From Yuukianura sp. NJ FZ-2021 (taxonomy: Eukaryota), in assembly GCA_046563655.1 (NCBI GenBank), contig CM102283.1, positions 7,316,001 to 7,380,000 on the forward strand: DNA of 64,000 nucleotides. Direction: 5' to 3'. Below the pieces are notes generated by a model. It ran no database searches. It saw nothing but the letters and a program-made list of their open reading frames with translations, and was not told the DNA's origin. This document shows positions 26,562 to 64,000 of the stretch, in pieces; position 1 is the first letter of the stretch; each line of letters starts with the position of its first letter. A program made the position numbers and the translations under genes.

Positions 26562-29500
26562 GGATGGTTTCGGATATCGATGCTACCTTTGAGGACGGAA
26601 ATGAACATGAAGGCGGTGGTACTACATCATGAAATTTTAGGATGAGCATCATATATCATCCAAGAAACTATGTTAAAAAATTTAGGATGGAGTACCACCG
26701 ATTAGTACCCTAAAAGTGTACCTAAAGTTGACTAGTTTTCTAAGGAAATAATCAAGTTTTTCTTGATTATTTCAACCCATTTAAATCATCCGGCTGGATG
26801 TAATTTTTACCACTGGGATGTGCACAATTCTCGGTTTCGTTTTTCGAAGCTGCACAATTTCAAACTTCGTGTTTTTGAGTTTATCTTGGACAATTTCTAA
26901 GTTTTGAGTGCGCATTGCTACGGAAACGGTTTTGGTGCATCAATGTTTGTTTATAAAAAAGTGCGATTTCTTGCTAAGACGTTTGGAAAGGTCAATTCAA
27001 TTTTGAGTTTTGAATAGTACGGACGTGTTTTGTTTTTGTGTTTAAAAAAGTTTGAGTAATTGAGTTTGGATAAAGTTTAATTAAAAGTTCTTATAAGAAC
27101 TAACTTTGTCAAATCAAAATGGGACGCTGGAAGTGTGGGAACTGTCTGCGAATGATAGCTTGCAACAAGCGGAAGTATGTATCGGAAGGAGATTCGATTT
27201 GTGCTAAATGCCAATGTGTTCTACGTAATTCATCAGGCTCAATTCATCGGAAGCTGCGAATGTGTGAGTACAATAAAAAAAAAAAGAAATACCCATTTTG
27301 CAAATTCTGAATTTATATTTACGTTATGACGATATGTTTTATAGCCATTGCTGCCAGTCAACCAGTTCTTCCCGTTTGTCCAGCGACCAGAAGCAAAAAT
27401 GTATCTACTTTTCCTTCTGTTTCGGCTGTAAGCGGTTCAACTGAGTCTTCTACATACTCAACTGAAGCCATGGATGCCGAGTCTAGCCAACATTCATCAA
27501 TTTCTAATGGTAAAACACTGAAACACAATGTTATCAAAGGAATCCAATCTGCAATCGATCCAAAAGAAATGCTGTGGGCATGCTCATGATGCAACTGAGG
27601 ATGAATCTCACCCAGAAACAATTGGCGTTCCTTTTTCGTGTCCCCAACATTTCTACAATTAGTGAAACTCTGGAGGCAGTTCTGGAGGCGCTGGAGAAGA
27701 CGTTCGTTCCAAAACACATTGGATTTCACCACATTTCTCGCAACGATTTGATTGCAAAGCACTCAGTTCCATCGTATAACAAACTTCTTCGAACCACAGC
27801 TCCAACTGATGATTCCGATGACGAGGATGATACTTACAGTAAGTTAATTCGCATTACATTTCATTTTATTACAACTGATTTTTAACGTTGGACTATATTA
27901 ACTATATTTAAACTATGCTTTAAATATTTAACATATTCTTTTAGTGGGCGATGATGTACTGAAGCTTATTTTCGACTGTACGTACCTCTACCACCAAAAA
28001 CCTTCCGACTTTGAACTTCAAAGGAAGACATTCTGCATGCATAAGGGGGCGAATTTGGTAAAACCGATGATGGTGGTTACGGAAACTGGATACATCTTAG
28101 AAGCCTCGGATGTCTACTTTTCTGATGCCGCCAACAACGACGCAGCGATACTCCAACATATGATGGACACTGGACCACTCCTAGACTTCTTCCAAGTTGG
28201 TGACCGAGCTATTTTCGATCGCGGTTTCAGGGACGTCGTGGATTTCACGGAAGGCCAGGCCATTTATCCACACATGCCCCCACTACTGCCGCGTGGTGCC
28301 AAGCAATTCTCGGATCTTGAAGCCAATACTTCTAGGTAATTGTAAATTGTATATTTACAATGTTCACTTCTTTTTTGAGTATCGTTTTCATAACTATAAC
28401 ATTTGTTTGAAATTTCAGACAAGTGACCATGATACGATGGGTTGTCGAGTCAGCCAATGGACGTGTAAAGAAAAAATTCTCCTTCTTTAGTGATGTCATC
28501 GAAGCGTCATACCTGCCGAAAATCGGAAGATTGTTCAGATTAGCCTGTGCTTTCATAAACGCATACTCGGGTCCTTTGTTCAAAGAGTCAGACGAACATG
28601 AAGAGATTGTTGACGACGCCATTGCCAGGATGCACGAAGAAAATGCGCTTCTCAAAATGCTGATGTCGGAAAACCTCCTAAGAAAACGTACGGGATGGAC
28701 TGAAGTTGGAGATTCCGCTGTTCCAGAGTTTCCCAAGTTAACAATGAGGGACCTGAAGATGCTGACTCTGGGTGTTTACCAAATTAAACTTGCCAAGCTT
28801 TACACAAATCAACACATGGCGAACTCCGCTGACTTCATGGTATTTTATGTGAAAAAAATAAATAACATGTAAAGCTAACCATTATATTAAACTGGATTAA
28901 TGATAATTTTGTTCTGGTTGTAGGTGTGGAAGCATGACACCAAGACAAACTTGCTCAAAGCCAAAATCCAGTCGAGGTTCACCAAGAATCGCAAGTACAA
29001 TACGTGGATTGAGTTTGAGCCGAACGGAGGAGGAGCTTCATCCGTCACTGGATACTATTGTTGCTGCTGGACGGGAGCAAGGACCCTCGGTACCTGTTCA
29101 CATGTGGCAACAATGTTGTACTTCCTCGGCTACAGACGACACCAAACTCAGATGACTCAAAAGAAGCGACGAGACCTATCCAGTTCAATTTTGACAGCAG
29201 AACGGACTGTCATTGAAGAGGCCAGTGATTCTACCAATACACAGGATGAATGAAAATACGAACACTGGTGACTCTGAACACTAAAAGGTTACATTTTTTA
29301 TGTTAGTCTTCAGTCTAAGTAGTCTTAAGTTCAATTCAATCTTCAGTTTAAGTCATTTACTTTTTCAATCATTTTTTCTTTTCTTTGTGCAAGCCGAGTA
29401 ATTGTAACTATATTTTCATACCCTTTCCTCTGTGGATGGGGTAAGCGGCTTGAATTGGTTGGGATCTCACACTAACGTGTGAGAGCAGAGGAAAGGATAG

Positions 29501-38532: not shown

Positions 38533-39713
38533 TCAAATTTTGAACACTTCACATTTTCCTGACAGCATTGTCAGTGCAAACACTGCTGCACCAGCCGCTG
38601 ACACTGCGATAACACTCCAAAGGAATCCCCAGCACTGAGCACTGCCACAAACTTCTTCAGCGAACATCACAGCATCAGACTTTCCCTGCGTGCTGTTGCT
38701 AATCCTCTTGCAAAGAACATCGTTGATGCAATCGTACAAGGCATGCAAAGTACAAATCGTCCCAACAACCAACATACAATATCGAATTGGATGTACTGGC
38801 ATTTCTTCAACCATTTCTTCCAGAACCCAAAGTCCTGCTGGAATACAAGCAAGCAACACGATCAAGATTCTCATCGTTAGTGAAAAGGCACAACGGAGAC
38901 CACAGATACGTTTTTCCTAAAAAGTAAGACAAGATATATAAAATTTATCAATTATAAACTGATTAATCAATTAACATGTACAGCAAAACCTCTCATTCGG
39001 AAACTTTTTTTAGTTCACGTGACTGTCGCATTCTGAAAAAAAAGTTAACTTTATAATAAGATGCCAACTTTACAGAAATAAGCTGTAGACACTTTGGCTG
39101 GTCCATTGTGCTCAGAAACGTTTTGGTGTCGCGAAAAACGTTTTGAACCAACGGACCAATCAGAGCGAGTTTCCAAATGAGAGGTTTTACTGTATGTATG
39201 CCTTACCTCGACTTTTAGGATAAGCGCCGTGACTAGACAGGAAATCATGAACACCACTGCGGCAATTTGTGTTGGCAACCTGTCCCATGTCATCAAAATG
39301 AAAAACGAACCCCAGACGACACTGCCAGTATAACCAGCAGACAGAATAATCCAGCGACTTCCGCCTCTGCTCAACGTTACTCCTCCATAGCTGTCGTTCA
39401 CTCTAATTCCAGAAACTTTTCCACAGGTAAGCCAAGTAGCACTGGCATGTGAAAATTCATGTAGAAAAACTGCAACTAATTTAATTGGGGCTAAAATTGC
39501 AGATCGCCACAGAAATCCCGTCACGATAATGGTCACTCCAATGACAATCAATCCCTCAAGCTGTCGATTGTTGCAGCAGCAAATGCCCTGCTTGTCCACC
39601 ACTTCGACTCCACCGAATTGAATCCGAAGTGCTTCTGCTGCCGGAGTATAATTGTGACTCTGATGCTCAAACTCACTGTGGCCATTGCTCGTCAAATTTT
39701 CGCCCGCCAACAT
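38533..39713 (-). CDS. Peptidase M50B-like multi-pass membrane metalloprotease, 2 exons (39713-39207, 38916-38533)
   Basis: LWRSAILAPIKLVAVFLHEFSHA (HExxH), LTCGKVSGIRV..GGVTLSRGG..WIILSAGYTGSVVWG, ALYDCINDVLCKRI..SDAVMFAE..C....WGFLW. The intron gag|gtaag...ttttag|gaa joins the exons in frame. Confidence 0.85.
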
Positions 39714-42700
39714 TTCAAAAAACGTCAGTCAAGCAATACTTTCTCAAGAAAGTAACTTTTACTCCACAAAAAAAAAACTCGATGCTGGAGGATGTCAAGC
39801 TCTGCAGTAAGGAGAATCTGCAGTAACCAAGAATTAGTGACTCACACCTTATCCAAATTGGAATTTAACAACACGAAAGCAAGTCTATGATGAAAACCTG
39901 AATGTGGCACAACAACCACGGACCAAACCAAACCCTAGTCTAGTGATTTCTGTGCAGTCTATACCATTTCAGCCTCCTTTCAGTATATTTCAATCTCTCT
40001 GGTTGGTAATATTTTACCGCAAAGCAAAGCCAGAGCCATTACCATCAGTGATAAGTGCCTGAGGGAGATAAGGCCAAACAATGCCAGGAAATCAACGTGT
40101 TAAGTACGTCCTCTACACCACCAAAAGTACCTTGCACACTTCTACCAGGGTTGTTCACATTACAAATTGGAAAGCGTTTTCAAAAAGCCCTTGGATGCAT
40201 CTCTGTAAACCAAAAAAAAAGTTGTGGACTTTATCTACCACTGACGTCTTTACCACAAAGATTAGACTTTTTGCCATACCGGAGTGAGTAGGTGGTGGAC
40301 TTGCTGAATTCTATTTAGCATTTGGCACAAAGTCGTCTTATAAATTTTGTACTACAGAATGACGTCTCTCCTGCTCGTCCTCTAAAAAGATGGCACAAAA
40401 AAAGTTCAATGAAGTCTGTATTGCGTGCGTCCTTATTCCGGTTTAAGAATCTTTGCTCCTGGTAGTACTAGTGGAGGTGGTTGGTCGTTGGCGGATGACG
40501 TTGTTACCCGGTTTTCGGTTTTTTTAGATTCCACTTCAGCAGAGACTGATATGGCTTCGTTTGTTTCAAACTCACACAAATGTCAATGAAAGTGAAAGCT
40601 AAAATAGTTTTTCCATTTCCATTCATGGATTTTGTCATTTCCATTTCAGATGAAGTCGGGAAAATCGAAACCGTAACTTTTCTTTCATTTTTTTTTAGAA
40701 AGAAAGACAACAATGGTTTCTAAAATTAGGAACTTTAGAAAACCAAGAAACCGCCTCCAAACAACTTTTTAAATTAAGAACTCTGATTGGCTGAGGTTCA
40801 ACTTTAGCAAAACTTTGACGTCAATGACACCATTTCAACATGAAAAATTACCGTAAATTTTCTTTAAATAGTACCAAAAAAATCAATTCCTAACGACAAC
40901 GAGAAACCCAATCAATCACTAAAGAAAAACAAAAATTGAGGAAACCTGCAAATTCTTGCAATTTTTTTATGTCGTATTTTTATTATTACAATAAATTGAC
41001 AATTTTTGACAAATGCCTTTTTTGGCTATTTGTAATCAAGTGTACTGAAAATTTTGATAAAATGTAAGTAAAAGTATTGTTCTCAATCTTTTACCGGTAG
41101 GATTTAAATTATATGGAACAGAAATAATGAAAATAATAGTAAGAAATGTTAGTTTAAACAGGACATAAAGAATGAGTAGTAAGATTATACATAGGAATTA
41201 AGACAGTACCTGATGCACATAATAATATGTAGGAAAACAAGAGAAAATATTTTAAAAATATCACTTTCTCTTCAAAAAAAAAATCGCTGTTTTTAGAATC
41301 GATAGATATCTTTTTAAATATTTTCCCGCTTCTACAAAATAATTTTTACCTCGAAATTCGATAAAATTAAGTTTACTTTTTATTTAATACGCTCTATTTA
41401 TAGAGGGCTCTAAACGACAGCACGCTTTATACTTAAAAACATAAAGCATCAAAAGGCTCTGTTTTTTTTTAGTTTTTACAAAGATCTAGATATATTGGAT
41501 CAATTTTTTCGAGATTTGCACATTTTTGGAAATCAGAATTGTAAATTGGAAAGAAAATTATGAAAACTAGAAAGTATAAACTCACTGATTATTTTACTAA
41601 TTTGTAACACAACAACACATGAGCGAAGGAATTGAATTGCAAATTGTCACAAGTTTCCGGTTGTTGCACGAGACCAAATTAATTTTAACATTTAACCTAC
41701 GGATTTACATTTAACTAAATGTTAAAATTTTAACTTTAGCTCGTTTATAGCTGTTATAGTTTACAGTTATACATGTAAAGACAAAAGAAGTTTATTTTAA
41801 TACTCGATTAACCAAAAAGTTACTTTTTATATACTCTCTCTAAATAACTTAAATTTATTACACAAGAGTGAAATATATTCTGTAACTTTTTTATGATTAA
41901 CGGGAGTATTATTAAATTTTCCAAAATTATGTCAAAACGGAGACCTGCTCGGGCGGGACTTTTTTTAAACTTTAGAAATCGTTTTTCGAAAAAATCCAAA
42001 ATGGAGTGTAATCTTTCCAAAAAACTACTCTTTTCGTTCATTTTCTTTAACTTTAATGACGAAAGTCACGTTAACTTTTTTTTCCTTGGTACACCCGTTC
42101 GTCTCGAGAAGGCACAATAAAATCTACACTTTCCAACACTTTCGTAACATAACGAACCTAATTTGCTAAATTCCTACTAAATATGCGCATTCGCAGAGCA
42201 AAATTAAAGTTTAATGCTCATGTAAACTCGAATTTAAACTGAAAGAACACAAATCCAAAGTTCCAAAAACTGCTTCTATAATACATTTCGTCCAACCTCC
42301 GCAAACTAAAACATACAAGTACTGATCCAAATATTCACATAGCATAGTAAAAACTCAAAATTTCAATTTTTGAACTTTAGCAGCCTAGTTTACTTTTTCT
42401 TTTTTCATTTTCTTAATTTTCTTTTAATCAACTCAAAAATAGTAGTCAACCTCGAATGTAATGAACAAAATTAAGTATGAAATTTGAAAGATGATTACAA
42501 TTTACCAAAAAAAGTGTAGTTTAAATGTCAAATTTGTCAGTAAGTCAACTTATGAGCACCACAAGGCACAAGTAATACAATTCAATTAGTGTCCAAATTC
42601 CACTTACTAGTGATTTTTAGTAGTAGTACATCCTCAAAATTTCAGTCTCCAATCTAGAATACCAAGTGTCTTTCGTTTTTTTACAATTTCTACAACACTT

Positions 42701-43315: not shown

Positions 43316-44668
43316 TTATACCTTCATGGTAAGCACACGCTGATGGTAGCGATCATGACTACTGTAGCAAGGGCTGCAGAGATCTTTGGTAGTTGTTTTT
43401 GACACTTTGTCTCCCACTGGAAGCGAATCGAACGGTGATCGCTGATTGGCGTAGGAAAGGAGGTCAGGCGAAGACATTGAACGGACTAGTCCAGTCGTTC
43501 CGGTCGCTCCACTCCCCTTGCTAAATGAAAAGTACTGGACGAGATTTGTGATTTTGTCCAAGTCGAGGTCCATGGCCGTCTCTTGCTCATGCTCCTCATC
43601 GCTGCTACTGCAACTCCCATTGGAAGATGGAACACGACGATCATTTTTCTCTTTCTCCACGACAATGTCAGGATCATAACTCTCGAAATCGTCATCTTCG
43701 AATAGGAACGGCGATGCATCGGCCTCTGCCGATTCTTCTTCGGTTTCCTCAAACTGGGATTTCTTCGTTCGGAAGTTGAAGTTGTTTCCCTTGAAAGTGA
43801 AGAATGGCTCGAGCGGGGTTCGGTTAGCAGAAGAATTGTAGTTTGACGTGGTAGAAATCGACATCAACATTGAAGTACCGGCCGGAATTGTGTTCTCTTT
43901 GCTATCGCAAGTTGCACGGAAAGTGTAGTTCTCGCTCAGAGCAAAACGAAATCTTTTCGTTCCAAAGTAGGTGGAATTGTTATTAAAAACTCCCGAATCT
44001 TCTTCATCGACATCGCTTTCCTCAGCATCGTAGGTCCAATCTCGACGGCGCTTACAGGAAGGAGCTGAGGCTGCGTACTTAAGCTGGCTATGGCTCATGT
44101 CACTTGACGTCATCACATCAGCTGATAGGCTGCTAACCAGTGCTTCGGCCGAAGCCTGGTCCAAATCCAGGTACGTAATTGACTTTGACGGAGACTCCGA
44201 CGACAAGCCCTCAGCAAATTCAGCCAGGATTAGTTCAGCCGTGGTTCGATTCTCATCTTCAGACGCAGTTCCGTTCCCCCTGAGGGTAAATTCCACATCC
44301 ACGACATCCGGAATTCCGCCCATCTTTTCCACACAGTTGAGGATGTCACTTGGTAGATCCATTTCTGTTCCATCGAGTTGAAAGAGAGCTCGGGAGTCTA
44401 GGAGAGCAGCTTGATCCTCTTCACTAATCGGTTCAGAGAAGGACAAAAGCTTCGAAGCACCGGTTGATGAAGACTGAGCTGGGAAAATTTCAGTGTCGTC
44501 AGTGCAAACAGTGAGACCGTCCAAAGTGATGTAAGCGGATCGAGCTTTTGTGAGAACCGATGAAATTAGAAGATGCTTGTGCAGACTGGTGCCACCGCGG
44601 CGAAGGCCTCTTGATTCCGCAATTTTTGTCAAAGACATGCTGATCACCTTCTCTACCTCGGCTTTCAT
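43316..44668 (-). CDS. Immediate early response (IER) family protein, intronless CDS, 450 aa
   Basis: N-terminus EVEKVISMSLTKIAESRGLRRGGTSLHKHLLISSVLTKARSAY matches the IER2/IER5 N-terminal block; C-terminal MDLDLDKITNLVQYFSF matches the IER C-terminal block; acidic disordered middle. Confidence 0.85.
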   Translation of the reverse strand: MKAEVEKVISMSLTKIAESRGLRRGGTSLHKHLLISSVLTKARSAYITLDGLTVCTDDTEIFPAQSSSTGASKLLSFSEPISEEDQAALLDSRALFQLDGTEMDLPSDILNCVEKMGGIPDVVDVEFTLRGNGTASEDENRTTAELILAEFAEGLSSESPSKSITYLDLDQASAEALVSSLSADVMTSSDMSHSQLKYAASAPSCKRRRDWTYDAEESDVDEEDSGVFNNNSTYFGTKRFRFALSENYTFRATCDSKENTIPAGTSMLMSISTTSNYNSSANRTPLEPFFTFKGNNFNFRTKKSQFEETEEESAEADASPFLFEDDDFESYDPDIVVEKEKNDRRVPSSNGSCSSSDEEHEQETAMDLDLDKITNLVQYFSFSKGSGATGTTGLVRSMSSPDLLSYANQRSPFDSLPVGDKVSKTTTKDLCSPCYSSHDRYHQRVLTMKV

Positions 44669-45889
44669 TTCCTTTCACCCAGAAAATGGCGGGCTTTCCA
44701 AAAATCTGAAAACCAAGAACATTCTCCTTCAGTCTCTCCACGATATCGTAAATTTTGAGCCTTTCCATTTCAAAAAACGTAGGTTTAGTCTTCCGTCAGA
44801 GTTAAAAAGCTCAATTTGAAAAGAAATCAACACGTTAAGATTCAGTGTTGGATCTCATCTATCATCATTGAAGACCAAACCGGAAAATTCGTTCTCTCCG
44901 TTATGCTTGACGTTCCTTAGACGATTTCCGGCCGAATCAAAACCAACTTCGGTTTTCAACTCACCAAAATTGAAGGAACTGCGTAGCCTGTGTCTCCTCG
45001 ACGTTTTGTTCGAAAAGTCGCAAATGTAATTTCCCCGATCCACTTACGCTGCAACCGGACTGTAAAAAAATGAACAATAATTGTTATAAACAAACACTAA
45101 TTGCTCAACTAGAAGAAGACTGTCCTTGATCTCTCAGAGGTGATTTAGAGTTCAGTTGGAAGTGGTTGAGCGGCTAAACTAAAAGTAGCAGAGCAGTTTA
45201 TCGCTGAATCGACTTTCAACTAAACTCTAAATTTGTCACGCCGCCCCTGTCAATCCACCACCCAATCCAATCGGTGTCTAATATCATCTCATCAAATCAG
45301 TCAGAACATTTACCCATCGTCAGAAGTTGACTTTTAGTTTTATCATCACATGACTTATTGAATTCGTTTTCCGTCAAAAACTATAAACTATCCCATAGCA
45401 GGAATAAAAGTAGTAAAAAATTAAATTTAGACAATTGCATTAAAATTATTCGTAACTTAAACTTAACGCTGCTAACTTTGTTATTTTGTATAAACTCAAA
45501 CTGGGGGGAATACAAGACAGACAGACGGGATGGGATGATGGGAACCGAATGAAAAAACCACGCCAAGGTCACGTTTCCGACATTAAGTTTAAGCTTCCAG
45601 GAGCCGAGAGCTGTGCCTCCTGGTTAGATTAGGCAATAGCTTAATCTACTCCTAAGCAAAAGAAAAACCGGGTTTCATTTGGAGATCATACTCCAAAAAG
45701 AGTTTAGATTAAGCTAATTTTTGGTTTAGCTTTAATCCCATTTTCGGTTCGCAAACGGAGAGCAGCGGACAGCGTTCCCAGTGGGAACTTGCTCCTAAGG
45801 GAGACGGCTGTGAGTTCAAAACCTGCAGCAGATGTAATTTTTTTTTTATTTTGTCAGAACGTGCCTACTCATATAATATTGCCTTTCAG

Positions 45890-52500: not shown

Positions 52501-54063
52501 GTACTTGGCTCGTGTCGCGAATTTTGAAACTGAAAATGATAAATAATATAACTTATTTTTTTGTTTTTATAGATTCCAATTGTAACTGTGGACAGTGACC
52601 TCGGGTCTTGCGAAATCATTCATCGCGGCCACTCGGAGTTCTCTGGAGTATATACTGTTGAAGACGTCAAAGTTGGGACGAATATTTTGAGAAGACTGAT
52701 ATTTTTGAACGCTCCGAATCTTATCCAGTCTGAAGTGGCGCTGAAAGGTATGTTGCCTTCTTGCTTCTTGTTTACGACAACAATGTTTCTGTTTCAACGG
52801 TAGTTTTTGTTGGTATGAAGACTGTGAGAGCACCTTTATTCATGAATTTTTTTTTGACTTTTTGTCTAACATAACAGTATTCGTTTTGAATTTTTTTTTA
52901 GTGACGACTCAGAAGGGCAAAGGTCAAGGGTGTAAACAGCAAATCAAGACTCCAGTGGCACATCAGCTGACATCAGACTATCATGGTTTTATGGCATTGG
53001 CTATTCCAATGTTGCGGTTCTTTTTGAAACAGGATCAGACTCGAACGGTGGAAACGCTTGTAATCGGTTTGGGCGGCGGTCTGCTCGTTTCATTTCTTCA
53101 TCACTATTTTCCAATGGTAAGTGAAGTATTGTTTTTTTTTTGTTGTTTTCATATGCAAACAAACTGTTTTCCATTTCCTTGGTGCAATGATGAATGAACC
53201 CCACCGCTGGTATTCGCCTTCTTGCGTTACCAGATATGAATCCGTGTGACATAAAAATTTATTCTGAATCGTTGAAATATTTATAATCTTCCCTAACTTT
53301 TTATTTCAGTTCTTAAGTCAAGCAAGGCTAACGTTTTTTTTTTACTGTGATAGGTGCACGTAACTGCGTTGGAGCTGGATAAGGAAATTGTAGAAGTTGG
53401 AAGAAAGTATTTTGGACTCCAAGAGCATGAAGGAGATGGGCGTCTTCGGATAGTTGTTGAAGATGGACTAAAATTCCTGAAAGAAGGTTAGTTTTGGTTT
53501 ATATTTTTTCATTATGTTTGTAAAATCTTCGAAGTTCAACGAATATGTTATTTACAGTTCCAGCAGAAAGGAAATTCGACGTGATCATGTTCGATGTTGA
53601 CAACAAATCCGTCGCCTCCGGGCTGTCTTGTCCTCCAGCTGAATTTCTTACAGACGAAACTCTAGAAGCGACAATCAGAGCATTAGCTCCCGAAGGAATC
53701 TTTGTAGTGAACTTTGTATGTCGAAATTTAGCGTTGGAGGATTGGAGCATAGCGTCCTTATCGTCACATTTTCCATTCATCTACAAATTCAAACTTGGCC
53801 AGGAAGTGAACACCGTTTTCTTTTGCTTTCCGAAAGCCCCTCCTGGAAATTCAAAGTTATTCTCGAAATCGCTTAAGAAATCTGTCCAGTTCCTGAGGGA
53901 TATTCAACTTAACGACATAACTTCGAATCAGAAGTCAAAGAAGGCTTCTAGTAGTCATGTTGAAGTAGATAACCAAACGGAAGATACGATTGTTGGTTTG
54001 ACGGACGTTGGAGTGGAAGATTTGTGTGCTAAATTCAAAATTATAAGAACCAAGGACACGTAG
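49574..54063 (+). CDS. METTL13: eEF1A lysine and N-terminal methyltransferase (two MTase domains), multi-exon
   Basis: LLPPSAADFSSSDYWDSFFTKR..FEW|YGE, LIVGCGSSNLSDRLY, VLDKGTFDAL, IFIIPQGRE, LFA-like YMFATHEGR, GHSEFSGVYTVEDV, LRRLIFL...LIQSE, LVIGLGGG, FDVIMFDVDNK....LSCPP; stop at 54061-54063. Confidence 0.95.
51250..52496 (-). CDS. Uncharacterised coiled-coil protein nested antisense in a METTL13 intron (2 coding exons: <=52529-52021 and 51949-51250)
   Basis: Two long ORFs are joined in frame by a 71-nt GT-AG intron (52020-51950; ctc gt|gtaag...ttttcag|g gag). Heptad-rich region EITRLRVQLDA...LAQLESYY. Lies within METTL13 intron 51203-52572. Start uncertain. Confidence 0.75.
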
Positions 54064-54252
54064 TACATTTTATTCAAAATTATTCGGTTCTATTTTACTA
54101 AACAATTTATTTAAAAAACTAAAAAATTATATCAATGCATTGAACTTGTTGAAGTCAACACATTTGTATTGATTTGTGGTGAACAACATTTTGGCAGGAT
54201 CAGACTAGTAAAATGCTGCTTTGGTAGCAAATGTGCTGCAGCAGTATTTTGT

Positions 54253-56826
54253 TCATTTTCTGATTTCGTTTCCTTTGTTCCATGCTTGCATTATAAGTGT
54301 AGCAGCCTTTTCGCCAATCATAATACACGCAGCATTTGGATTACTGACGACGATTGTTGGCATTATGGAGGCATCAGCTACGCGAAGCCCTTTGACCCCT
54401 ACAACACGAAGCTCCGAATCAAGCACTGCGTTTGGATCATCTTTTGCACCCATTGAACAAGTACTGGTCGGATGGTACATTGTAAAAGACATATGTCGAG
54501 CATAACATTCCAAGTATGCATCACTAAAGAAATAATTTCAATAATATATTAATGAATTTATAGTAATTAAGTAATTACTTAAGTAATTAATTAGTAATTT
54601 GGATTTTACCTCTTAGGTACATGATGTTCACACCCAGGAAACATTACTGGTGTCATGGCTCCGCCCATACTTTGAAACGCAGTAGAATTTTCAACAAGAT
54701 GGACAGCTCTTCGCATTCCTTCTACCATGACTTGTATGTCATGTGATCCAGCATCTTGAAAGTATTTTGGATCCATAAGTGGATCCAAAGTAGGATCAGT
54801 TCCAGCCAATAGAACTTCGCCTCTTGTTTTTGGTCTTCCGACAATCGTGATCATCATGAAAGAATCCTTGCCTTTGATTGGTCCATAATATTTGTGCAGT
54901 ACTCCATCTCTGACGTTAAATGCAAATTCAAAATCACGCGGTGCTTTGTCATAAACAGCTGTTCCGAGTAACATGTACTGGAAGTCAGGCCAGTCTCCTT
55001 CTCCGCCGTCTTTGGCTAACTGGGACGTAAGGAATGCTGAAGCCTAGAAAATTCAAAATTTTAATTTTCAAAATTCAGTTTTAAAAATTGGAATTTGAAA
55101 ATTTAGTTTGTTACCATAGGTCCAGTAGTCGTTAGTGGCCCGGTTCCACTTGTTGCAAACTGGTAGAACGCCTGAGGCGTCAATTCCCGGTCCAAGTTGA
55201 ATGCCACGGAGTCATTGACCGTAAACGGGCCGACGAATGATGTGATGTGATCTTGCAAGTTCTTGCCTACTGGTAAATCTTTCCGTACTTTTATACCCAG
55301 TTGCTCCAAATGCTCTTTTGGTCCAACTGAAAAATGGATTTTGTCAATTTTATGAAATTTTGAAACTTTTGTTCTGAAGTTTTACAGAACCATGCATATG
55401 CTGCTGAACTTACTTCCGGAAAGCATCAAAATTTTTGGAGTGTTTATGGCTCCTGCAGAGAGAATGACTTCTTTAGTAGCAACTGCAAAACGTTTGACTC
55501 CATGACGCTCATATTCAACTCCAAGAACTTGGTTGTCCGGTCCCAACATCAACTGCACAAGTACAAAATTTTTCAAAATTTTGAATCGAGAATTTTGAAG
55601 TTTGTGGTACGCCATAAAATTTTTATGTGCACTTACCCGATTGACATGAGCAAATTTGTAAATTGTTAAATTTTTTCTATCGAGATGCGGCTCTAGAAAT
55701 GCTTTGTAAGTTCCGAAACGGCGTCCGTTTTTTTGGCAGTAAAAGTTGGCTTCAAAGCCTGAGAAAAATCAAAAAAAAATTAGAGTTGTTGTTACTAGAG
55801 TGTGTAGATAGATTTAGGAGATGAAAGAGATTTCATTTTGCAGTGACTTTTGTATAATTTCCGTATACCTTCTGTATAATTTCCGTTGAGATCTGCCTCT
55901 GGATATCCAAACTCAGCTCCAGCCTTGATAAAAGTATCAGCCAATCCAGTGTAATCTGGTTTCTGAATATTCAGTGGTCCACCATAGGCATGGCGACGTT
56001 TCCGTTCCGAATCCATCTCTTTGTCATAAACGTAATTCTCTGATTTTTTAAACGAGTTAAGTACGTTTTCATAGTTCCATCTCGGGTCTCCAGTGATGTT
56101 GGCCCAGTTATCATAGTCTTTTGCATGACCTCGCAAGTATATCATGAAGTTTAAGTTACTTGATCCACCAAGTCCTGGAAATTTTCAAAAATTTTAGTTA
56201 CTAAAGTGCTCAAAATGTTCAAAATTCTTAGTTTCAAAAACAATGTCGCGGAATCTTACCTTTCCCTCTTGGCCAATAGCATTGCTGAAATACCAAAAAA
56301 AAAAACAAATTCGTAATTTGAAATCACAAACTTTCTTTTTAGGAATGATGTTGTGTTAGTTTTACGTGATTGTTCATAGCGAGGCAAGCATTTTCCTGTG
56401 GAGTCGTCAGATATCTCCAGTCGATATGAGGTTGTCGCAGCATCAAAAGCGATAACGCCGGAATAGACTGCAGCGGTGACGGATCTCCACCAGCCTCCAG
56501 TAGCAGCACATTGAACTCCTCCGATAGTCGGCTTGCTACTACTGCTCCAGCACTTCCAGCTCCAACTATAAATATCGACATATTTTGAAAAATTTTGAAA
56601 AAAAAATTCAAACAGCATTTTCTTTAAATTTTAGTCCTAAGTTACCGACAATGAAGTCAAAAGTATCCTGGTACTCTCCGAAGGTCATTCGGACGCTGTC
56701 GGAAACACGGTCCAGATCGGAGTACGTGTTGACATTTATTGAGATCATGCCAATGAGGCTGTAAAGAATCGGGCGATACCACATCCCTAGCCTCGCAAAC
56801 GGTCGAACGAAAACGTTCGGTTCCAT
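54253..56826 (-). CDS. GMC oxidoreductase (glucose dehydrogenase-like flavoprotein), multi-exon
   Basis: FDFIV|VGAGSAGAVVASRLSE..VLLLEAGG, WPRGK|LGGSSNLNFMIYLRG..DYDNW, KEVILSAGAINTPKILMLSG, LPVGKNLQDH, YHPTSTCSMG...AVLDSELRVVGVKGLRVADASIMP....NPNAACIMIGEKAA. Confidence 0.95.
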
Positions 56827-57552
56827 TTTGAATTTGAACTTTTCAAAAAATTGAGCACTAAAATTAAATTTAAAACTTGAACTTTTTATATCAAGTCCAC
56901 TTTGAGCAAAACCTGTAAAATGTGAATGCCAATTTGGGACTAACGCCAAATCAGAAGCAATCGTTCGTATTTAATTGTTTTCAGTGTTAAACCAATGATG
57001 CAAACCTCCTCGTCAGACAGCATTACGTTTTGTCTCTTCTCTTTTTTATTGCAATTTGGAGGTTAGGCTGCTTGTTGCCTACGTGCCTTAGGTCTCGATT
57101 GCAAATTGTACGAAGATCAGCATGATTTGACATTGTCCTTGGCAAAAATTTCAAAAATGTTGCATTGTGGGGTCATTTAATTGTATTGTAGTAACATTTG
57201 AAGCATTTGAAGCAATCGATTACATCAAAATCCTGTTTGGTGTGATGTCTTATCATCGTTGGCTTTAGGTTCTTACGTATTAAAATCAAGAAAAGTGCTT
57301 AAGGTGTTACCATTAAAAGTGAAAGCTGTAACGTGTTTTTGTAATAATTGAAATTATAGTTAGCAATCTTAAAATGATTGATTACTGTTTACACAAGAGT
57401 GAACACGCATCATCGTTTATCGATTTGCTTAAAGCATAAAACGATGATTTATGATTTTAATTCAGATACAAATTAATTTTTCAGAAAATGTGATTTCAAT
57501 TTATTTTCAAAAAATACAGTTGTTTTTTTCTTGCGAAGATTGTACAACAAGT

Positions 57553-59000
57553 TCAAGGTTCTTCTTCTACTTTTGAGGTTGGTTTGACCCCTGCTTGCGT
57601 CATAATGGGATTGTCGTTGCCATTTGAAACGACTTTTAAAGGTTTGGCATGTTTGATTAGTGGCGGTGGATCAATCAAAGCATTTTTGCGAAACATTTCC
57701 CTGACCTCTTCAAGTGTATGATTGTTACTGAGTTCTTCGGCGTTCAAAACAGGAAACACAGCGGAACATGGAAAATTTGTTGTCGAAATTGCCCACTCCT
57801 TCGGTAGACGCAAACTCATGATCAACCGAATTTCTCGGATGATGTCTGCACAGAAGTCGTCTAGCGGCTGAAGTTCAAAAATTGTTAAAGATTCAAGTAA
57901 AAAATTTCTCCAATTTACAAAATTTTGCAAAATTTTGATTTCCTACCAAGTCATTGTCATCATATCCAAACGGATTTTCAATTTCCTCTCCGATTCCCAG
58001 TATTCCCAGAATTGCAAAACAGGCAATCACGACAATTGGCACAGTTAGCCAACCCAGGTCATGGACCAATTGAAACGGAAGTGCCAAAATGTAAATGTGC
58101 AAACAGTGACCAAGGTGGCGGGAGTAGGCTAAGGGCATCGGAGTCCTCAAAATCTTTTCAAATGAACATAAGTAGTCCCCCAAGGCAGAAACGGCTAAAA
58201 GTTCAATCAAAAGCAGAATCTGAATTAGAATGAAAAATTTGAATGTTCAACACAAACTGTGAAATTCTTACATTCCTGCAAAACTTTCATGACATTCTGG
58301 TCAGCCATGCCCTTTTCAGTGATTTTGTCCAGATAGGCTCCAATGTAGTAAGTGATTAAACAAGGGGAATTCGACGGAGCAACAAAATCAGGAATTTCTT
58401 CTTGCCTTGCTCCTGCCGGCGCATGAGCATTGGCCATGATTGCTTTGACTCGATTTGGGGCTGGTTTCAAAAGGACTTCTGGAAATCCATAGACATACGG
58501 CTTCATGTCTTCAAAGTCCTGCGAATACTCGTTGCGCAAATAATGTTTTGTTGCAAGTGGAAACGCTGTCAGTAGATTCATAATTGTTTTCTTTTCAACC
58601 AAATCTTTGGTATCAGAGTCCTTGATGCTGATCCATACTAAACGAGCTAAAGTTCCAACTGTACTGCCCAAAGATGTCCACAAATTCCGTCCTTCCCAGT
58701 ACCTTTCAAAATTTTCAAAAAAAAAATTTTTTTTGAATTCAAAATTGAAAGTCTTCAACTTTCAACTTTTTTTTACCTGTCGTATGCAATTTGTGTCCGA
58801 AAAACCAAGAGAAGACCAGTAACGATACCCAGGATATCCGTAAGGTCAATGCGCAGACTCGTTTCAGCAAAACTCGGAACTGACAAATAAATTCCACAAA
58901 CGACTGCAGTGTATATACCAACCAGAATTATTTTGAACCAAATCCGCTTAAGTACTGTTCCCTTCAACAGTTCCTGGAAAATACTTCCTGCTGGCAGCAT
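57553..59000 (-). CDS. Bestrophin-like anion channel of the YneE/UPF0187 (microbial, fungal, plant) type, 4 exons
   Basis: Exons 59000-58777, 58702-58272, 58194-57947, 57867-57553 splice in frame. GLLLVFRTQIAYDRYWEGRNLW, AFPLATKHYLR, EKILRTPMPLAYSRHL, LALPFQLV, GILGIGEEIENPFGYDDNDLPLDDFC. Confidence 0.92.
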
Positions 59001-60321
59001 TTTGACGATGCTGGATCAACACTTCACCTTGACCTTCAACTTTTGACTATTGCACAACACCCTCTCCCGGATTCACACTTTGAGATGTGAACCGACGCTG
59101 GCTCAAAAGTCGTCTGTGATGATGAACTTGACCTCAAGGATTTTATAAAACGATGCCAACAAAATCTGGTCTCATCACATAAAAACTTTTCATCTTTCTT
59201 ATTCCCACCATCATCGTGAGATGTATTATGTAGTTATGTACTTTTTTGCATGTTAAGACTTATCAAGCACACTGGAGCAGTCGTAGTTGTAAAATTTACA
59301 TGGTGAATCTGGTTTTTTGAAACGGTTTTCCACTTTTCAATAAATTGATTTGGCACTTTACGATGTATCTCTCTTTCAAACTTGTTGAACGGGTTTGCGA
59401 AATCAGTTTTTGCAAAATTCCTTTCAAAATTTTACCTTCCAGTTCATGTTTAAGCAACTTCCAGGACTAGAATTCACACTGTTTGCGTGTGTGCGTTTTT
59501 TTTTCGGTAATAAAAGAATCAATTTATTAACCTTGATTGTTTTAAACACAAAAAAATTAATTGTGAATTCAAGTCATGTATTAAGTGTCTCAACTTTTTA
59601 GATAACAAATTAATTACTACTCTGCAAATTGTCCTTGGTTAGAAACATTTTTTTTTTACTTCAGAATTCGACAAAAGTTTTCTACTTTTTTGGGAATACA
59701 AATCCTTTCCTTACTACTTTTTTGAAATTAGTAAATAAAAATGGTGCGTGGATTTAAATTAGTTTTGGTTTAAATATTCTACTTTTAACAATCTACGGGT
59801 AGTATAAAGTTACAAGCTACAAAAAATTGCACATAAATTACTAAAAATTTTGTTATTGGTCGACTGGTTTTGTCAACAACGTTAATGTAAAATAATAATA
59901 CTAAAACGTTATTAAAGTACGTATATCCGTTTACACAATTTTAGTACAACTTTGACAATACTATTTTACAATGGTTTCAAAAATTTGAAGTTTTCAAAAT
60001 CAACTTGATTGTACGTAGCTTAGAAATTAATTTTAGGGAAGCAATCAATTTCAAACCAAATACGCTACGAGGGTACTCCTCGAAGAATTTTTCTTCTGAA
60101 ATTTTCTGGATTATGTTACACGTCATTAGTTTTGTTCGAAAAAGGGCTCTGCTGGATTTAGTTTTTGGAAAACAACATTTTTAACTTTTAAAACTATTGA
60201 AAACTTTCCCGAAACACTAATTTTTTGTTAATGTTTTCTTGAGACGATGGTAGAGGAACTCAAAATTAGCAAATTTTTCTAAATTTTTTAAAACTTCCAT
60301 AAAAAAAAGTTCTAAAAAAGT

Positions 60322-62554
60322 TTACTTGTAGTAATGGTGGTTGCTATGCTGGAGATTGTGGTGGTTTCCATTGGAGGAACTTAGGATGAGAGATGAATTG
60401 GTTTTGGCGGGAGGATGGTGATGGTGGTTTAAGTTATTCGGTACGCATGCGCTGCCAGGAATTCCGTTGGTAGACATTTTGTTTTTCGGTTTCCTTTTTC
60501 TCGTTTGAATTCCATCTTTGCGCATGGCTTGTGGGCGATTGACACCGTGCAACTTGTAGTACAGGCCACATGCATTACAAACCGGTTCTCCGTCGTTGTT
60601 GCGCCGCCACAGAGTTGTAGTTGTCGTTCCACAATTTGTACAACAAAGGCCAAGACGTCGAGATGTTGCCTACAAAAGTCACAACGTAAGTGTCAACCTT
60701 CAACTTCAAACTCCTGAGACAAACCACATTTGACGCAAGAGTTGCGTGTATAGCAAAGTTGCCGTTGCACAGACCTCGAAGTTCAAGTTGCGCATCATGC
60801 TTTTGTTACGAGAAAATTCAAGGTTTGTTAACTTTGATTTTCTGTAACAGGTTGGGTAATACTTCATGTTTTTTGATTTTGCAAAAAAAAGAGTGTATTT
60901 TCATTTTACGGCATCCTAGTCATAACAATACAGCCGAATTCTTTGAATTTTGCATACGAATTGGCAGCAATTTTTCCTATTGGTACTAAAATTGGTACCA
61001 ATTTTTTTTTTGTTTCTTTGGCAACAAGCGAAGTAGTGTCCAACCAATTAAAGAAAATTAACTTTTCCTTGTCAAGGAACCTTGGAGAAAATCAGAAATT
61101 CGACATTTTTAAATGCCACAACGCGGGAATTTCAAACTCACCATTCTCCTTGACGGTTTAATCAGCGGTCGGTTCATTCCGTTCATTTTGTGGTAAAGAC
61201 CGCAGGCATTACACAAGTAATGTCCGGTTCCATCACGGCGCCACAACGGTGTCGAAACAGCACCACAGTTGACACATTCCCTTGCTTCGTTTATACCCGC
61301 CGGAGTCCATCCAGGACCAAGGAAGCAAGTTGTGTCCAAAACAGCCGCTGCAGTCAGTGCAACTGAAGACGTACTTCCAGTTGAACTCATTCCCAGATTT
61401 GACATGGACATGGGCATGTGAGGAGCGTGACCATGGTGACCGGACATACCGAACATACTGGATGCTTGGTTGTTAACTGCAGAGTGTTGATGGTGGTGGC
61501 TGGAATTGGAGTGACCGTGGGTGTGGTGATGACTTAGGGCCGCCGTGGCGGATGAACTCATAAAACTGGGATTCATTTCTGGAGAAACCAAAAAGAAAAA
61601 AGTTTTTTCAAAATTTGGCGCCTTGTGAGGAGCCATTAGCGCCAAAGAAACATTCCTGAGGTTTTCCATTAAGGAAAAACGGAGAGAACATGACTGGATT
61701 TCTGAAATGGAATTGGCTAAGTGACAACAGAAAAATTTCCGAAGGAATTCCATTCTCCTTTTTATGCATCAAGTCTAATCTACGGCTGATAAGAAACGAC
61801 TTTCGTTTTTTCAAAACCCCGCTACTTTTGAAAATTTCCAAACACAAAAAACTTAACGCCATTTTCAAATTTTCTGCCTATCATTTTTTCGAGTAGTAAC
61901 AACCCCGCCTCCTCTTTTTTATTATCAAGTGCTAAACGGCCCGCCACGCCTTCATGTTTTTGATTTACTTTTTATAACTTCTTAGCATTCCTGTTGTTTC
62001 TCAATCCAGCTTTTCAAAATTTTATGAAAAAAATCAAAATTTTGAAAAACCTTACCGTAGGCATGATGTGTCCTGGATATGCCAGTGTCATAATGGTGTC
62101 TCCACATTGCTCCTGCGTAGGGATACAAGTAGGAAGAGGGGGAGTAGGACCCTGAATTGGCACTTCCGGAAGATCCGGAACTGCTATTCGTACTATTAGT
62201 GGGGCTTGTTGTGATGGTGGAATTGTTGTTACTTATGGACAGAGATGCAAAATTGTTTGGCCATAAGTTAGACTGTTGTTGGTGTACCGAATGAGTCCTG
62301 CCAGAACTGGACGTGTCCATTGTTTCCACCCCTGACTCAATTTTGATCGTGGTTTGCATCCCCTGTTGTCCCTGGTTGTGTCCATGCAGCGGACTTTGGT
62401 TAGGGTGAAAACCGAAATTGGAGCGGGAATGCATCGTGGTGGAGCTGGTTGCTACCCGGGAATTTCTGTCCGTCGGATCGATTCCCCCGCTGGACGAAAA
62501 AATGGAAGCTGATGACGGTTGCTTTTGGACGTACACGTTGGATGAGTACAGCAT
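60322..62554 (-). CDS. pnr: GATA transcription factor with two zinc fingers, pannier (GATA4/5/6) type; 5' end may extend further
   Basis: Exons 62554-62056, 61578-61142, 60669-60322. [109 protein letters not shown] is the pannier signature. Confidence 0.9.
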
Positions 62555-64000
62555 CTAAAAATTTTCTGACGGGAAATCGGAACGGAATCTGAAATTTAAA
62601 AAATGTAACAATTTCAAAAACAAAAAAAAAACTCTTTTTTTTACTCAAATTTGGTAACTTGGAATATAAAATTTAAAGGTAAAGATGCATTTTGTTCTAA
62701 AAATGTCAAATAAAAGTTAATTGTGACTAATTTGTCGAATTAATGGCTGATTTTATTTGATTTTTTGAATTGTAGTGCACCTTATTTATCTTTGGCGCTT
62801 TGTTTTTTCTTTTGTTGTGTTTCTTGAAACATAAAATTGGAAAAGCGTGTTTGGAATTTTAATTTAAAATTTCAGTGAGTGTTGAACTATGGAGTGGGAG
62901 GGAATAAAGTTGACATGTTTTTTGGAAAATGGAGGTGTGGAGTATGTGACACAATGAATTTATTGCAAATTTCGTTCATTAATTTTCCACCACCGCCGCA
63001 AACTTAAAGTTTCAATGAGCGCTAAAATTCAAAACACCAAAAATTCAAACTACTTTAAAACTTTCCGTCTGTTTCTGCCTCATTCCCTCTTCAAGAAATG
63101 CAATAAATCCATTTTAAATTATGGAGCCAGAAACAGACGCATAAATCTTGTAAACAACTAAAAAGTGTATGGAACTTTTAGGAAATGGAATTGGAAACTC
63201 AGCATATGCCCCAAAAATTCTCAAAAACCAATTTCCGCGTGGTTTTTGTACAAGAGTGTTTAGTTTTTTCTTTAAATAAGAGATACTCACTATTCCTCTG
63301 AATTGCGCTTAAAAGTTCAGACTTAATGAACATCTTGTAAGTTTTGTACTAGTTAGTGTGACTTAAAACAGTGACTTTGGAAAACAGAAAGTGAGAAATC
63401 AGGCGTGTAGACTTAATTGGTCGTTACTTGACTTTTGCATATGGCAGACACTTTGAACTTCTTCTTCGCGCTCTGAATCCTAACAACCATTTAATTTTTC
63501 CTGGAAGGAGCCGCTACCATTAGGATTTATTTTCTTGTTTTTGGTTGATGCAAAAGTTTTGTACTTTGGCAAATTAGTTATGTTCGGAGCCTGGTTTCTA
63601 AAATTTTCAATTTTGAAATTGAAGTATTGTTTTATTTTTCGAAATGTTTTTTGTTGGCTTGTATCCAGATGTAAAAGGCGCACGAGAAGGAACAGGGTTA
63701 AGTGGGTTCATTTTTCTGTAGGTTTTGTGTTTCGGAAACTATAAAGAGGGCTTTCCCCCTTTTCAAACTGACACGCGACATAAGCCTAACAAAGCAAAAA
63801 ATATTTGAAACAATTTTTGGTTTCATATGTCGTGGATGTAACAGAAATTACAAAACCCAAACTTCATTGTGAAATTTTTAACAAAAAAAAAATCTATGGT
63901 GCAAAATAAAAAGTGTGAACCACGCTTAACAGCGAAAGTAATTTTTAAGCAAATTCTACTTTTTAGCGGCATTTCTTTTTTGGAGTTTTTGTGCAAAGTG

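Follow-up and report, generated by a model that had tools for sequence, protein, structure and literature searches.

A Fungal-Type Bestrophin_2 Gene Among Animal Genes in Yuukianura sp. NJ FZ-2021 and Its Probable Origin by an Old Horizontal Transfer

Introduction

How does a bestrophin gene of an apparently bacterial, fungal and plant type come to lie among the genes of an animal? The question is raised by a 64,000-nucleotide stretch of the genome of Yuukianura sp. NJ FZ-2021 (assembly GCA_046563655.1, contig CM102283.1, forward-strand positions 7,316,001 to 7,380,000), which we call the window. A preliminary description made from the sequence alone had proposed that the window contains a horizontally transferred gene for a bestrophin-like anion channel.

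Our analysis suggests that the gene is functional and host-integrated, that it encodes a subunit of a Bestrophin_2-type channel, and that it goes back to an old transfer into springtail-type soil hexapods from a fungus near Mortierellomycotina (Mucoromycota). We put the probability of this reading at roughly three in four. It draws on what we observed of the structure of the gene and the family to which it belongs, on its linkage to animal genes and its place within fungi in the tree, and on a shared intron and long-term conservation.

Results and Discussion

Gene Structure and Family Membership

The window contains a 405-codon bestrophin-type gene on the minus strand, running from 59000 to 57553, with four exons and a spliced frame of 1218 nucleotides (Table 1). 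The preliminary description had placed an intact four-exon gene with characteristic motifs here. Its coordinates were exact, the frame is open, and the motifs LLLVFRTQIAYDRYWEGRNLW, ILRTPMPLAY and EIENPFGYDDNDL are all present in the spliced product, the last of them continuing into PLDDF and thus straddling the exon 3/4 junction. The introns are short, as that description had also remarked; they are AT-rich and all of the GT..AG type. All three splice junctions are gapless against two intron-free relatives, P0101 and P0346, and the tblastn alignments of eight homologues end at the predicted exon borders. According to tblastn, this is the only copy of the family within the window.

We compared the exons with the two Pfam bestrophin families. 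Exons 1, 2 and 3 each exceed the cut-off of Bestrophin_2 (PF25539; 27 bits), and they match positions 15-77, 79-182 and 194-272 of the 288 profile positions in colinear order. The canonical animal family (PF01062) reached 17.7 bits with exon 3 only, which is below its gathering cut-off of 24.2 bits. On this sequence evidence the gene is a member of the bacterial, fungal and plant branch of bestrophins and not of the canonical animal branch, and the earlier assignment to the YneE, fungal and VCCN branch is upheld. Exon 4 has no Pfam match. The tail that it encodes can be aligned to those of relatives from springtails and fungi and of unnamed relatives.

Relatives and Their Taxonomic Spread

A search with exon 3 gave 98 matches among 124 candidates, in which the named animals were represented by three springtail proteins. 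The best matches were two unnamed metagenome fragments with 91% (P0001) and 77% identity. Proteins of Folsomia candida, Allacma fusca and Orchesella cincta came next (65-69% identity), followed by proteins of Zoopagomycota, a chytrid, Glomeromycotina and cyanobacteria. With exon 2, none of 165 candidates among longer proteins reached E <= 0.001; this search was word-based and excludes only close full-length relatives.

A profile built from three springtail proteins retrieved 4541 proteins at E <= 1e-10. The best 120 of these comprised 11 rows from four springtail species and 17 rows without an organism name, and all other named rows were fungi, mostly Mortierellomycotina. HMMER found 9278 family members among 1.84 billion cluster representatives. 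No new representative among the best 150 of the 9278 was closer to the window protein than P0101, the nearest full-length relative, and of ten further cluster representatives the seven with names were all fungal. Among the matches listed, orthologues did not occur broadly across Metazoa: the only named animals with relatives were F. candida, A. fusca, O. cincta and O. dallaii, which by taxonomy represent the springtail orders Symphypleona and Entomobryomorpha.

Part of this pattern was already on record. Table S6 of the O. cincta genome paper (2016) lists Ocin01_08903, Ocin01_15013 and Ocin01_08902 as horizontally transferred; their best metazoan matches score 35-42 bits, compared with 255-291 bits for those in Rhizophagus (PMC4987106). 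In the same source the Bestrophin/UPF0187 family orthomcl5020 has 10 copies in one of 11 count columns, which we took to be that of O. cincta, and 0 elsewhere (PMC4987106). The main text of the paper makes no mention of bestrophin (PMC4987106). Our literature search found no paper that combined bestrophin with springtail, and the papers that it found on springtails or on transfer into arthropods did not use the word bestrophin; four others that do use it deal, judging by title and abstract, with different topics. In two supplementary files of the F. candida genome paper, which may have further supplements, the terms bestrophin, UPF0187, the locus tag and PF01062 were absent.

The proposal of a horizontal transfer candidate is supported in its main part, the fungal origin, but has to be amended. 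The gene was not acquired by this genome alone: it belongs to an old springtail-type family with several copies. Nor is the transfer new, being already contained in the O. cincta table. What we add is a donor placed as the neighbor of Mortierellomycotina, the finding of one of the introns in fungal-like loci as well, evidence for deep paralogue lineages, and an undescribed lineage to which the window gene belongs.

In a side observation, six of the relatives (P0101, P0346, P0169-P0171 and P0180) are full-length and uninterrupted, with 362-421 residues, on contigs of only 1.2-1.6 kb, and genomic copies of the same subgroups bear introns. These look like transcript-derived contigs. If they are, relatives of the window gene are expressed somewhere.

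Phylogenetic Analysis

We estimated a careful maximum-likelihood (ML) tree from 48 rows and 443 columns under the LG+C20+F+G4 model, with cyanobacteria as the outgroup. The window protein, five rows without a name, eight from springtails and 10 from Mortierellomycotina formed one clade with support of 100/99. This clade was nested among Glomeromycotina, Mucoromycotina, Zoopagomycota, a chytrid and Ascomycota. A quick tree of 88 rows recovered the same clade, with 41 rows and a value of 100 in the Shimodaira-Hasegawa-like approximate likelihood ratio test (SH-aLRT). We then compared constrained trees by the approximately unbiased (AU) test. The tree that kept the 29 named fungi together, with the animal-type rows outside, was rejected (log-likelihood difference 43.7, p = 0.005). 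The tree that joined the 14 animal-type rows in one clade was not rejected (log-likelihood difference 3.7, p = 0.39). The ML check that had been suggested for the fungal affinity therefore came out in its favor.

These results also bear on vertical descent, in which an ancestral opisthokont Bestrophin_2 gene would have been kept here and lost in nearly all other animals. Fungi and animals are both opisthokonts, and the first intron, which is common to fungal-like loci, could be ancestral. However, the rejection of the all-fungi-together tree and the grouping of the animal-type rows with a single fungal subphylum (100/99) argue against such descent, as do the lack of any other named animal among the matches listed and the low metazoan scores recorded for O. 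cincta (PMC4987106). We consider vertical descent very improbable indeed, and an old transfer from a Mortierellomycotina-like fungus is our preferred reading.

Intron Comparison and Conservation

We scanned metagenomes with exon 3 as the query and obtained 28 loci. Thirteen of them (L001-L005, L007-L009, L012, L014, L018, L019 and L022) share one contig-name prefix and jointly resemble every animal-type subgroup; the sample behind them seems to hold an animal or animals with ten or more paralogues. In one of these, L009, a three-exon tyrosine-kinase gene lies upstream of the bestrophin copy.

An intron occurs at the intron-1 junction in all seven animal-type loci that show both flanking exons, its phase having been read for L001 only. 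At the intron-3 junction there is a gap of 68-337 nucleotides in 10/10 animal-type loci with exons 3 and 4. Intron 2 is at the same place in L001 and is absent from L009, L010 and the fungal-like L013. In bacterial-type loci the coding sequence is uninterrupted.

The comparison with fungal genes, which had been proposed as a check, used two Glomeromycotina-like metagenome loci, L013 and L023, with 63% identity to an Entrophospora protein and 72% identity to a Rhizophagus protein, respectively. The position and phase of intron 1 are common to the window gene and both loci. Introns 2 and 3 are not placed alike in L013, whose 3' intron lies 7 codons beyond the animal intron 3. L023 was read for introns 2 and 3 only around the point matching intron 3, where it reads on in frame through ...DDFSG to a stop. 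Because a fungal intron is shared, the transfer probably took place as genomic DNA and not as a processed transcript. The transferred material would have included at least one fungal intron, and the gene would afterwards have multiplied into several deep paralogue lineages. The window holds one divergent lineage, in a single copy.

L001 is an orthologue whose four exons and three intron positions match those of the window gene, and it is 71.8% identical over 393 codons. The nonsynonymous divergence (dN) between the two is 0.21, and the synonymous divergence (dS) is saturated. The GC content at third codon positions (GC3) is 0.66 in L001 against 0.43 in the window gene. Since this structure and identity are retained at saturated synonymous divergence, the lineage was kept intact through a long divergence. 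A tblastx comparison of the window flanks with the 28 loci, most of which lie on short contigs, gave no synteny match at 1e-5.

A decaying or silent relic without present function would be a different explanation. It would account for the long branch of the window lineage and for the fact that none of the public RNA runs listed contains the locus. The 405-codon open frame, the canonical splice sites, the retained invariant motifs of the family and a polyadenylation-type signal all argue against it, as does the 72% identity to the orthologue with its saturated synonymous sites. A relic is very unlikely on this evidence, which favors a functional gene.

Genomic Context

The gene is flanked by a GMC oxidoreductase gene, whose end is about 0.9 kb away, and by the gene of a GATA factor with two zinc fingers, whose start is about 1.3 kb away (Table 1). 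The first of these domain matches agrees with the GMC oxidase named in the preliminary description, and the GATA factor may correspond to the pannier gene of that description. More distant neighbors are IER, PTPA and CD36 genes and a SNORD36 small nucleolar RNA (snoRNA). The GC3 of the four exons ranges from 0.39 to 0.48, compared with 0.34 to 0.52 in neighboring genes, and the GC content of the introns is 0.18-0.27. We found no repeats of note flanking the gene and no sign of a recent mobile-element insertion.

We examined whether the locus could be an artefact, either from contaminating fungal DNA or from a chimeric assembly join. Among the public contigs listed, all of them short, none bridges the whole 10-kb stretch from 53500 to 63500, which would leave room for such a join. 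However, the 64 kb of the window contain no N, and the gene is physically linked to animal genes on one contig, so the earlier argument that animal neighbors speak against contamination is sound. The three short AT-rich introns and the host-like GC3 point the same way. The locus is covered by public DNA contigs from two studies, and 3 runs have coverage in every one of the 30 depth bins. In the second study, one contig runs across the 5' border of the gene (58946-59361), and part of the 3' intergenic DNA is spanned as well (57008-57433). The metagenome orthologue L001 has the same structure. The probability of an artefact is practically negligible, and we take the gene as a resident of the animal genome.

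Predicted Protein

The structure and Protein Data Bank (PDB) queries were made with P0101 (47% identity to the window protein). Of the 22 matches that the PDB sequence search gave at E <= 0.01, 19 were chains of KpBest (E 4e-27 to 3e-25), two were VCCN1 entries and one was a bestrophin-rhodopsin fusion; no animal BEST1-4 name was among them. The AlphaFold2 model of P0101 has a mean confidence (pLDDT) of 86.6 and a TM-score of 0.84 to KpBest 4WD7, normalised to the target. In the hydropathy profile of the window protein, transmembrane helices (TM) 1, 2 and 4 are clear and TM3 is weaker.

KpBest is a pentamer with four TM helices per subunit and conducts Na+ (PMC8496536). When its middle neck Ile is changed to Phe by the exchange I66F, the preference turns to Cl- (PMC8496536). 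We used the definition of the neck given in that work (PMC8496536). Through P0101, the hydrophobic TM2 neck I59-x3-L63-x3-F67 (i, i+4, i+8) of the window protein aligns with I-x3-I-x3-F of KpBest. By homology, the protein would form a pentamer with four TM helices per subunit and a pore gated by this neck. The pore would then open to a cytosolic vestibule, and a lineage-specific C-terminal tail would follow.

The anion channel of the preliminary description was a deduction, because the closest solved homologue, KpBest, conducts Na+. Anion selectivity may be likelier by analogy with plant and algal members, yet with its middle-neck Leu the protein resembles the Na+-conducting KpBest. Channel function, a pentameric state, any ion selectivity and expression are inferred for the window gene, and so is a springtail host, from the nearest named relatives.

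Number and Direction of Transfers

Several points weigh against an old fungus-to-animal transfer of a functional channel gene. In the tree, Mortierellomycotina lie within the animal-type rows, as sister to the main springtail group (97/86) and then to one Folsomia paralogue (94/86); reciprocal monophyly would agree better than this placement with a single event from fungus to animal. The branches of the window protein (2.09) and its partner P0346 (1.93) are long, and their join was flagged by the program. The groups in the AU tests were named after the quick tree had been seen. The five unnamed rows were counted as animal only by association, because they resemble genomic loci that have animal-type introns; one of these loci lies beside a split tyrosine-kinase gene. 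The absence elsewhere in Metazoa refers to the best 120 of 4541 proteins, the best 150 of 9278 representatives and the 2016 table. The missing RNA runs mentioned above belong here as well. With regard to the channel, the middle neck residue is Leu, versus Phe in anion-selective animal bestrophins, and the sequence does not imply anion selectivity.

With Mortierellomycotina inside the animal-type rows, the number and direction of events within the clade may be other than a single step from fungus to animal. There could have been several transfers or a reverse one: the window lineage, with P0346, L001 and L002, may go back to an acquisition of its own, apart from that of the main springtail group, or to passage between soil arthropods, or Mortierellomycotina may have received their copy from a springtail-like animal. 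This would be in line with the nested position of Mortierellomycotina and with the window lineage near the base of the clade, on its long branch. We also found no named springtail protein within the window lineage among the matches listed, and terpene synthases shared among soil arthropods provide a precedent (PMC11665903). However, the AU test left a single animal-type clade standing, fast-evolving paralogues are expected to drift towards the base of a tree, and the regular presence of introns 1 and 3 in the readable animal-type loci fits one ancestral gene. Repeated or reverse transfer is therefore unlikely. In any case the ultimate source is fungal, because fungi surround the clade in the tree and the Glomeromycotina-like loci have intron 1 too.

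The single old transfer from fungus to animal can also be extended. Soil hexapods might have a second bestrophin family, of fungal origin, which was captured with its introns from a Mortierella-like fungus before the springtail orders split and now has at least four deep lineages and about ten copies per genome, with the window copy in an undescribed lineage. The boldest form of this idea, to which the topology of the best tree points, would include repeated moves between these animals and Mortierellomycotina, also from animal to fungus. As a whole it is doubtful.

Comparison with Known Bestrophins

The nearest named counterparts are the springtail Bestrophin/UPF0187 genes, namely Ocin01_08903, 15013, 08902 and 16099, the 'UPF0187 protein sll1024/alr2987' of F. 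candida, and the 'Bestrophin homolog' of A. fusca and O. dallaii. They have in common with the window gene the Pfam family, an animal nuclear host, the clade with Mortierellomycotina and a C-terminal extension that begins with PLDDFC. Unlike in these points, the window protein is only 42-43% identical to them. It falls into a separate deep lineage with P0346, P0001, P0002, L001, L002 and L018, all of them metagenome sequences. The Mortierellomycotina and Glomeromycotina bestrophins share 37-41% identity with the window protein along almost the whole length, including the tail.

KpBest of Klebsiella pneumoniae (4WD7, 4WD8, 6IV*) is the closest solved structure to P0101 and has the I/L/F-type neck and, by prediction, the four-TM core in common with the window protein. 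KpBest is Na+-selective (PMC8496536). It differs in being bacterial, in its length of about 297 residues without the variable loop or C-terminal tail, and in having TAAND where the window protein has an acidic YDDND. Plant VCCN1 (7EK1) and the algal thylakoid bestrophin-like proteins belong to the same Bestrophin_2 branch but are plastid-targeted. The match of P0101 to VCCN1 was far weaker than that to KpBest (E 4e-14, TM2 region only). VCCN1 is a voltage-dependent Cl- channel (PMC4890181, PMC9076864), and in the opisthokont search of the VCCN1 paper the top 10 matches were all fungal. The window protein would by homology resemble the canonical animal BEST1-4 (PF01062) in superfamily fold and pentameric design. 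Both have a hydrophobic neck, which is I-F-F in BEST1-4 and I-L-F in the window protein.

Other Features of the Window

The coordinates of the gene and of other features are collected in Table 1. A two-exon gene, 19 kb from the bestrophin gene, matches the Peptidase_M50B-like family PF13398. This family is mainly bacterial, fungal and plant, and the gene may therefore be a second one of foreign type. Open frames with a match to DDE_Tnp_4, the Harbinger/PIF-type transposase, are probably a transposon copy. The SNORD36 C/D-box snoRNA lies just past the 5' end of an IER-like frame. Between the two GATA zinc-finger exons, the summed contig depth of each of the four runs rises about 30- to 200-fold above the neighboring bins, and loose ends and joints are numerous. 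A high-copy repeat is indicated here, which is uninformative on the bestrophin gene.

Table 1. Features of the bestrophin-type gene and of its surroundings (positions in the 64-kb window).
Feature	Position	Strand	Description	Evidence
Start codon	59000-58998	-	ATG of the bestrophin-type gene	
Exon 1	58777..59000	-	Codons 1-74 and two bases of R75; predicted TM1 and pore-lining TM2 with neck I59, L63, F67	PF25539, 36.7 bits; hydropathy
Intron 1	58703..58776	-	74 nt, GT..AG, phase 2 within the Arg codon of AYDR/YWEGR, GC 0.18	
Exon 2	58272..58702	-	Codons 75-219 (partial); predicted cytosolic helices and variable loop	PF25539, 42.1 bits
Intron 2	58195..58271	-	77 nt, GT..AG, phase 1	Gapless junction against P0101 and P0346
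Exon 3	57947..58194	-	Codons 219-301; most conserved; ILRTPMPLAY ... EIENPFGYDDNDL, predicted TM3 and TM4	PF25539, 95.6 bits
Intron 3	57868..57946	-	79 nt, GT..AG, phase 0, 3' of DDNDL	
Exon 4	57553..57867	-	Codons 302-405 and TGA; predicted C-terminal cytosolic extension, begins PLDDFC	No Pfam match
Stop codon	57555-57553	-	TGA of the bestrophin-type gene	
AATAAA polyadenylation-type signal	57500..57505	-	50 nt 3' of the first base of the stop codon	Sequence motif alone
GMC oxidoreductase	54606-56184		Flanking gene	GMC_oxred_N and GMC_oxred_C
GATA factor	60322-61768		Flanking gene, two zinc fingers	Domain matches
High-depth segment	60514-61181		Between two GATA zinc-finger exons	Contig depth
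SNORD36 snoRNA	44790-44873	-	C/D-box; next to IER-like frame 43316-44674	39.3 bits; gathering score 30
Peptidase_M50B-like gene	38533-39728	-	Two exons; profile positions 4-110 and 116-198 of 201	PF13398, E 2e-27 and 1e-7
Transposase-like open frames	27514-28872	+	Harbinger/PIF-type; probable transposon copy	DDE_Tnp_4, E 7e-6

Conclusions

The practical value of the finding is modest, since the transfer is already contained in a supplementary table and is visible in database names. The shared intron gives a concrete handle on the route of transfer, genomic DNA versus a processed transcript. The genes that animals took from microbes mostly encode enzymes, according to the discussion of the O. 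cincta paper (PMC4987106). If the proposed history is true, a transferred ion channel in about ten copies, kept under selection, would be an unusual addition to the membrane physiology of animals, and it might play into the way in which soil-dwelling hexapods deal with osmotic conditions, pH or anions.

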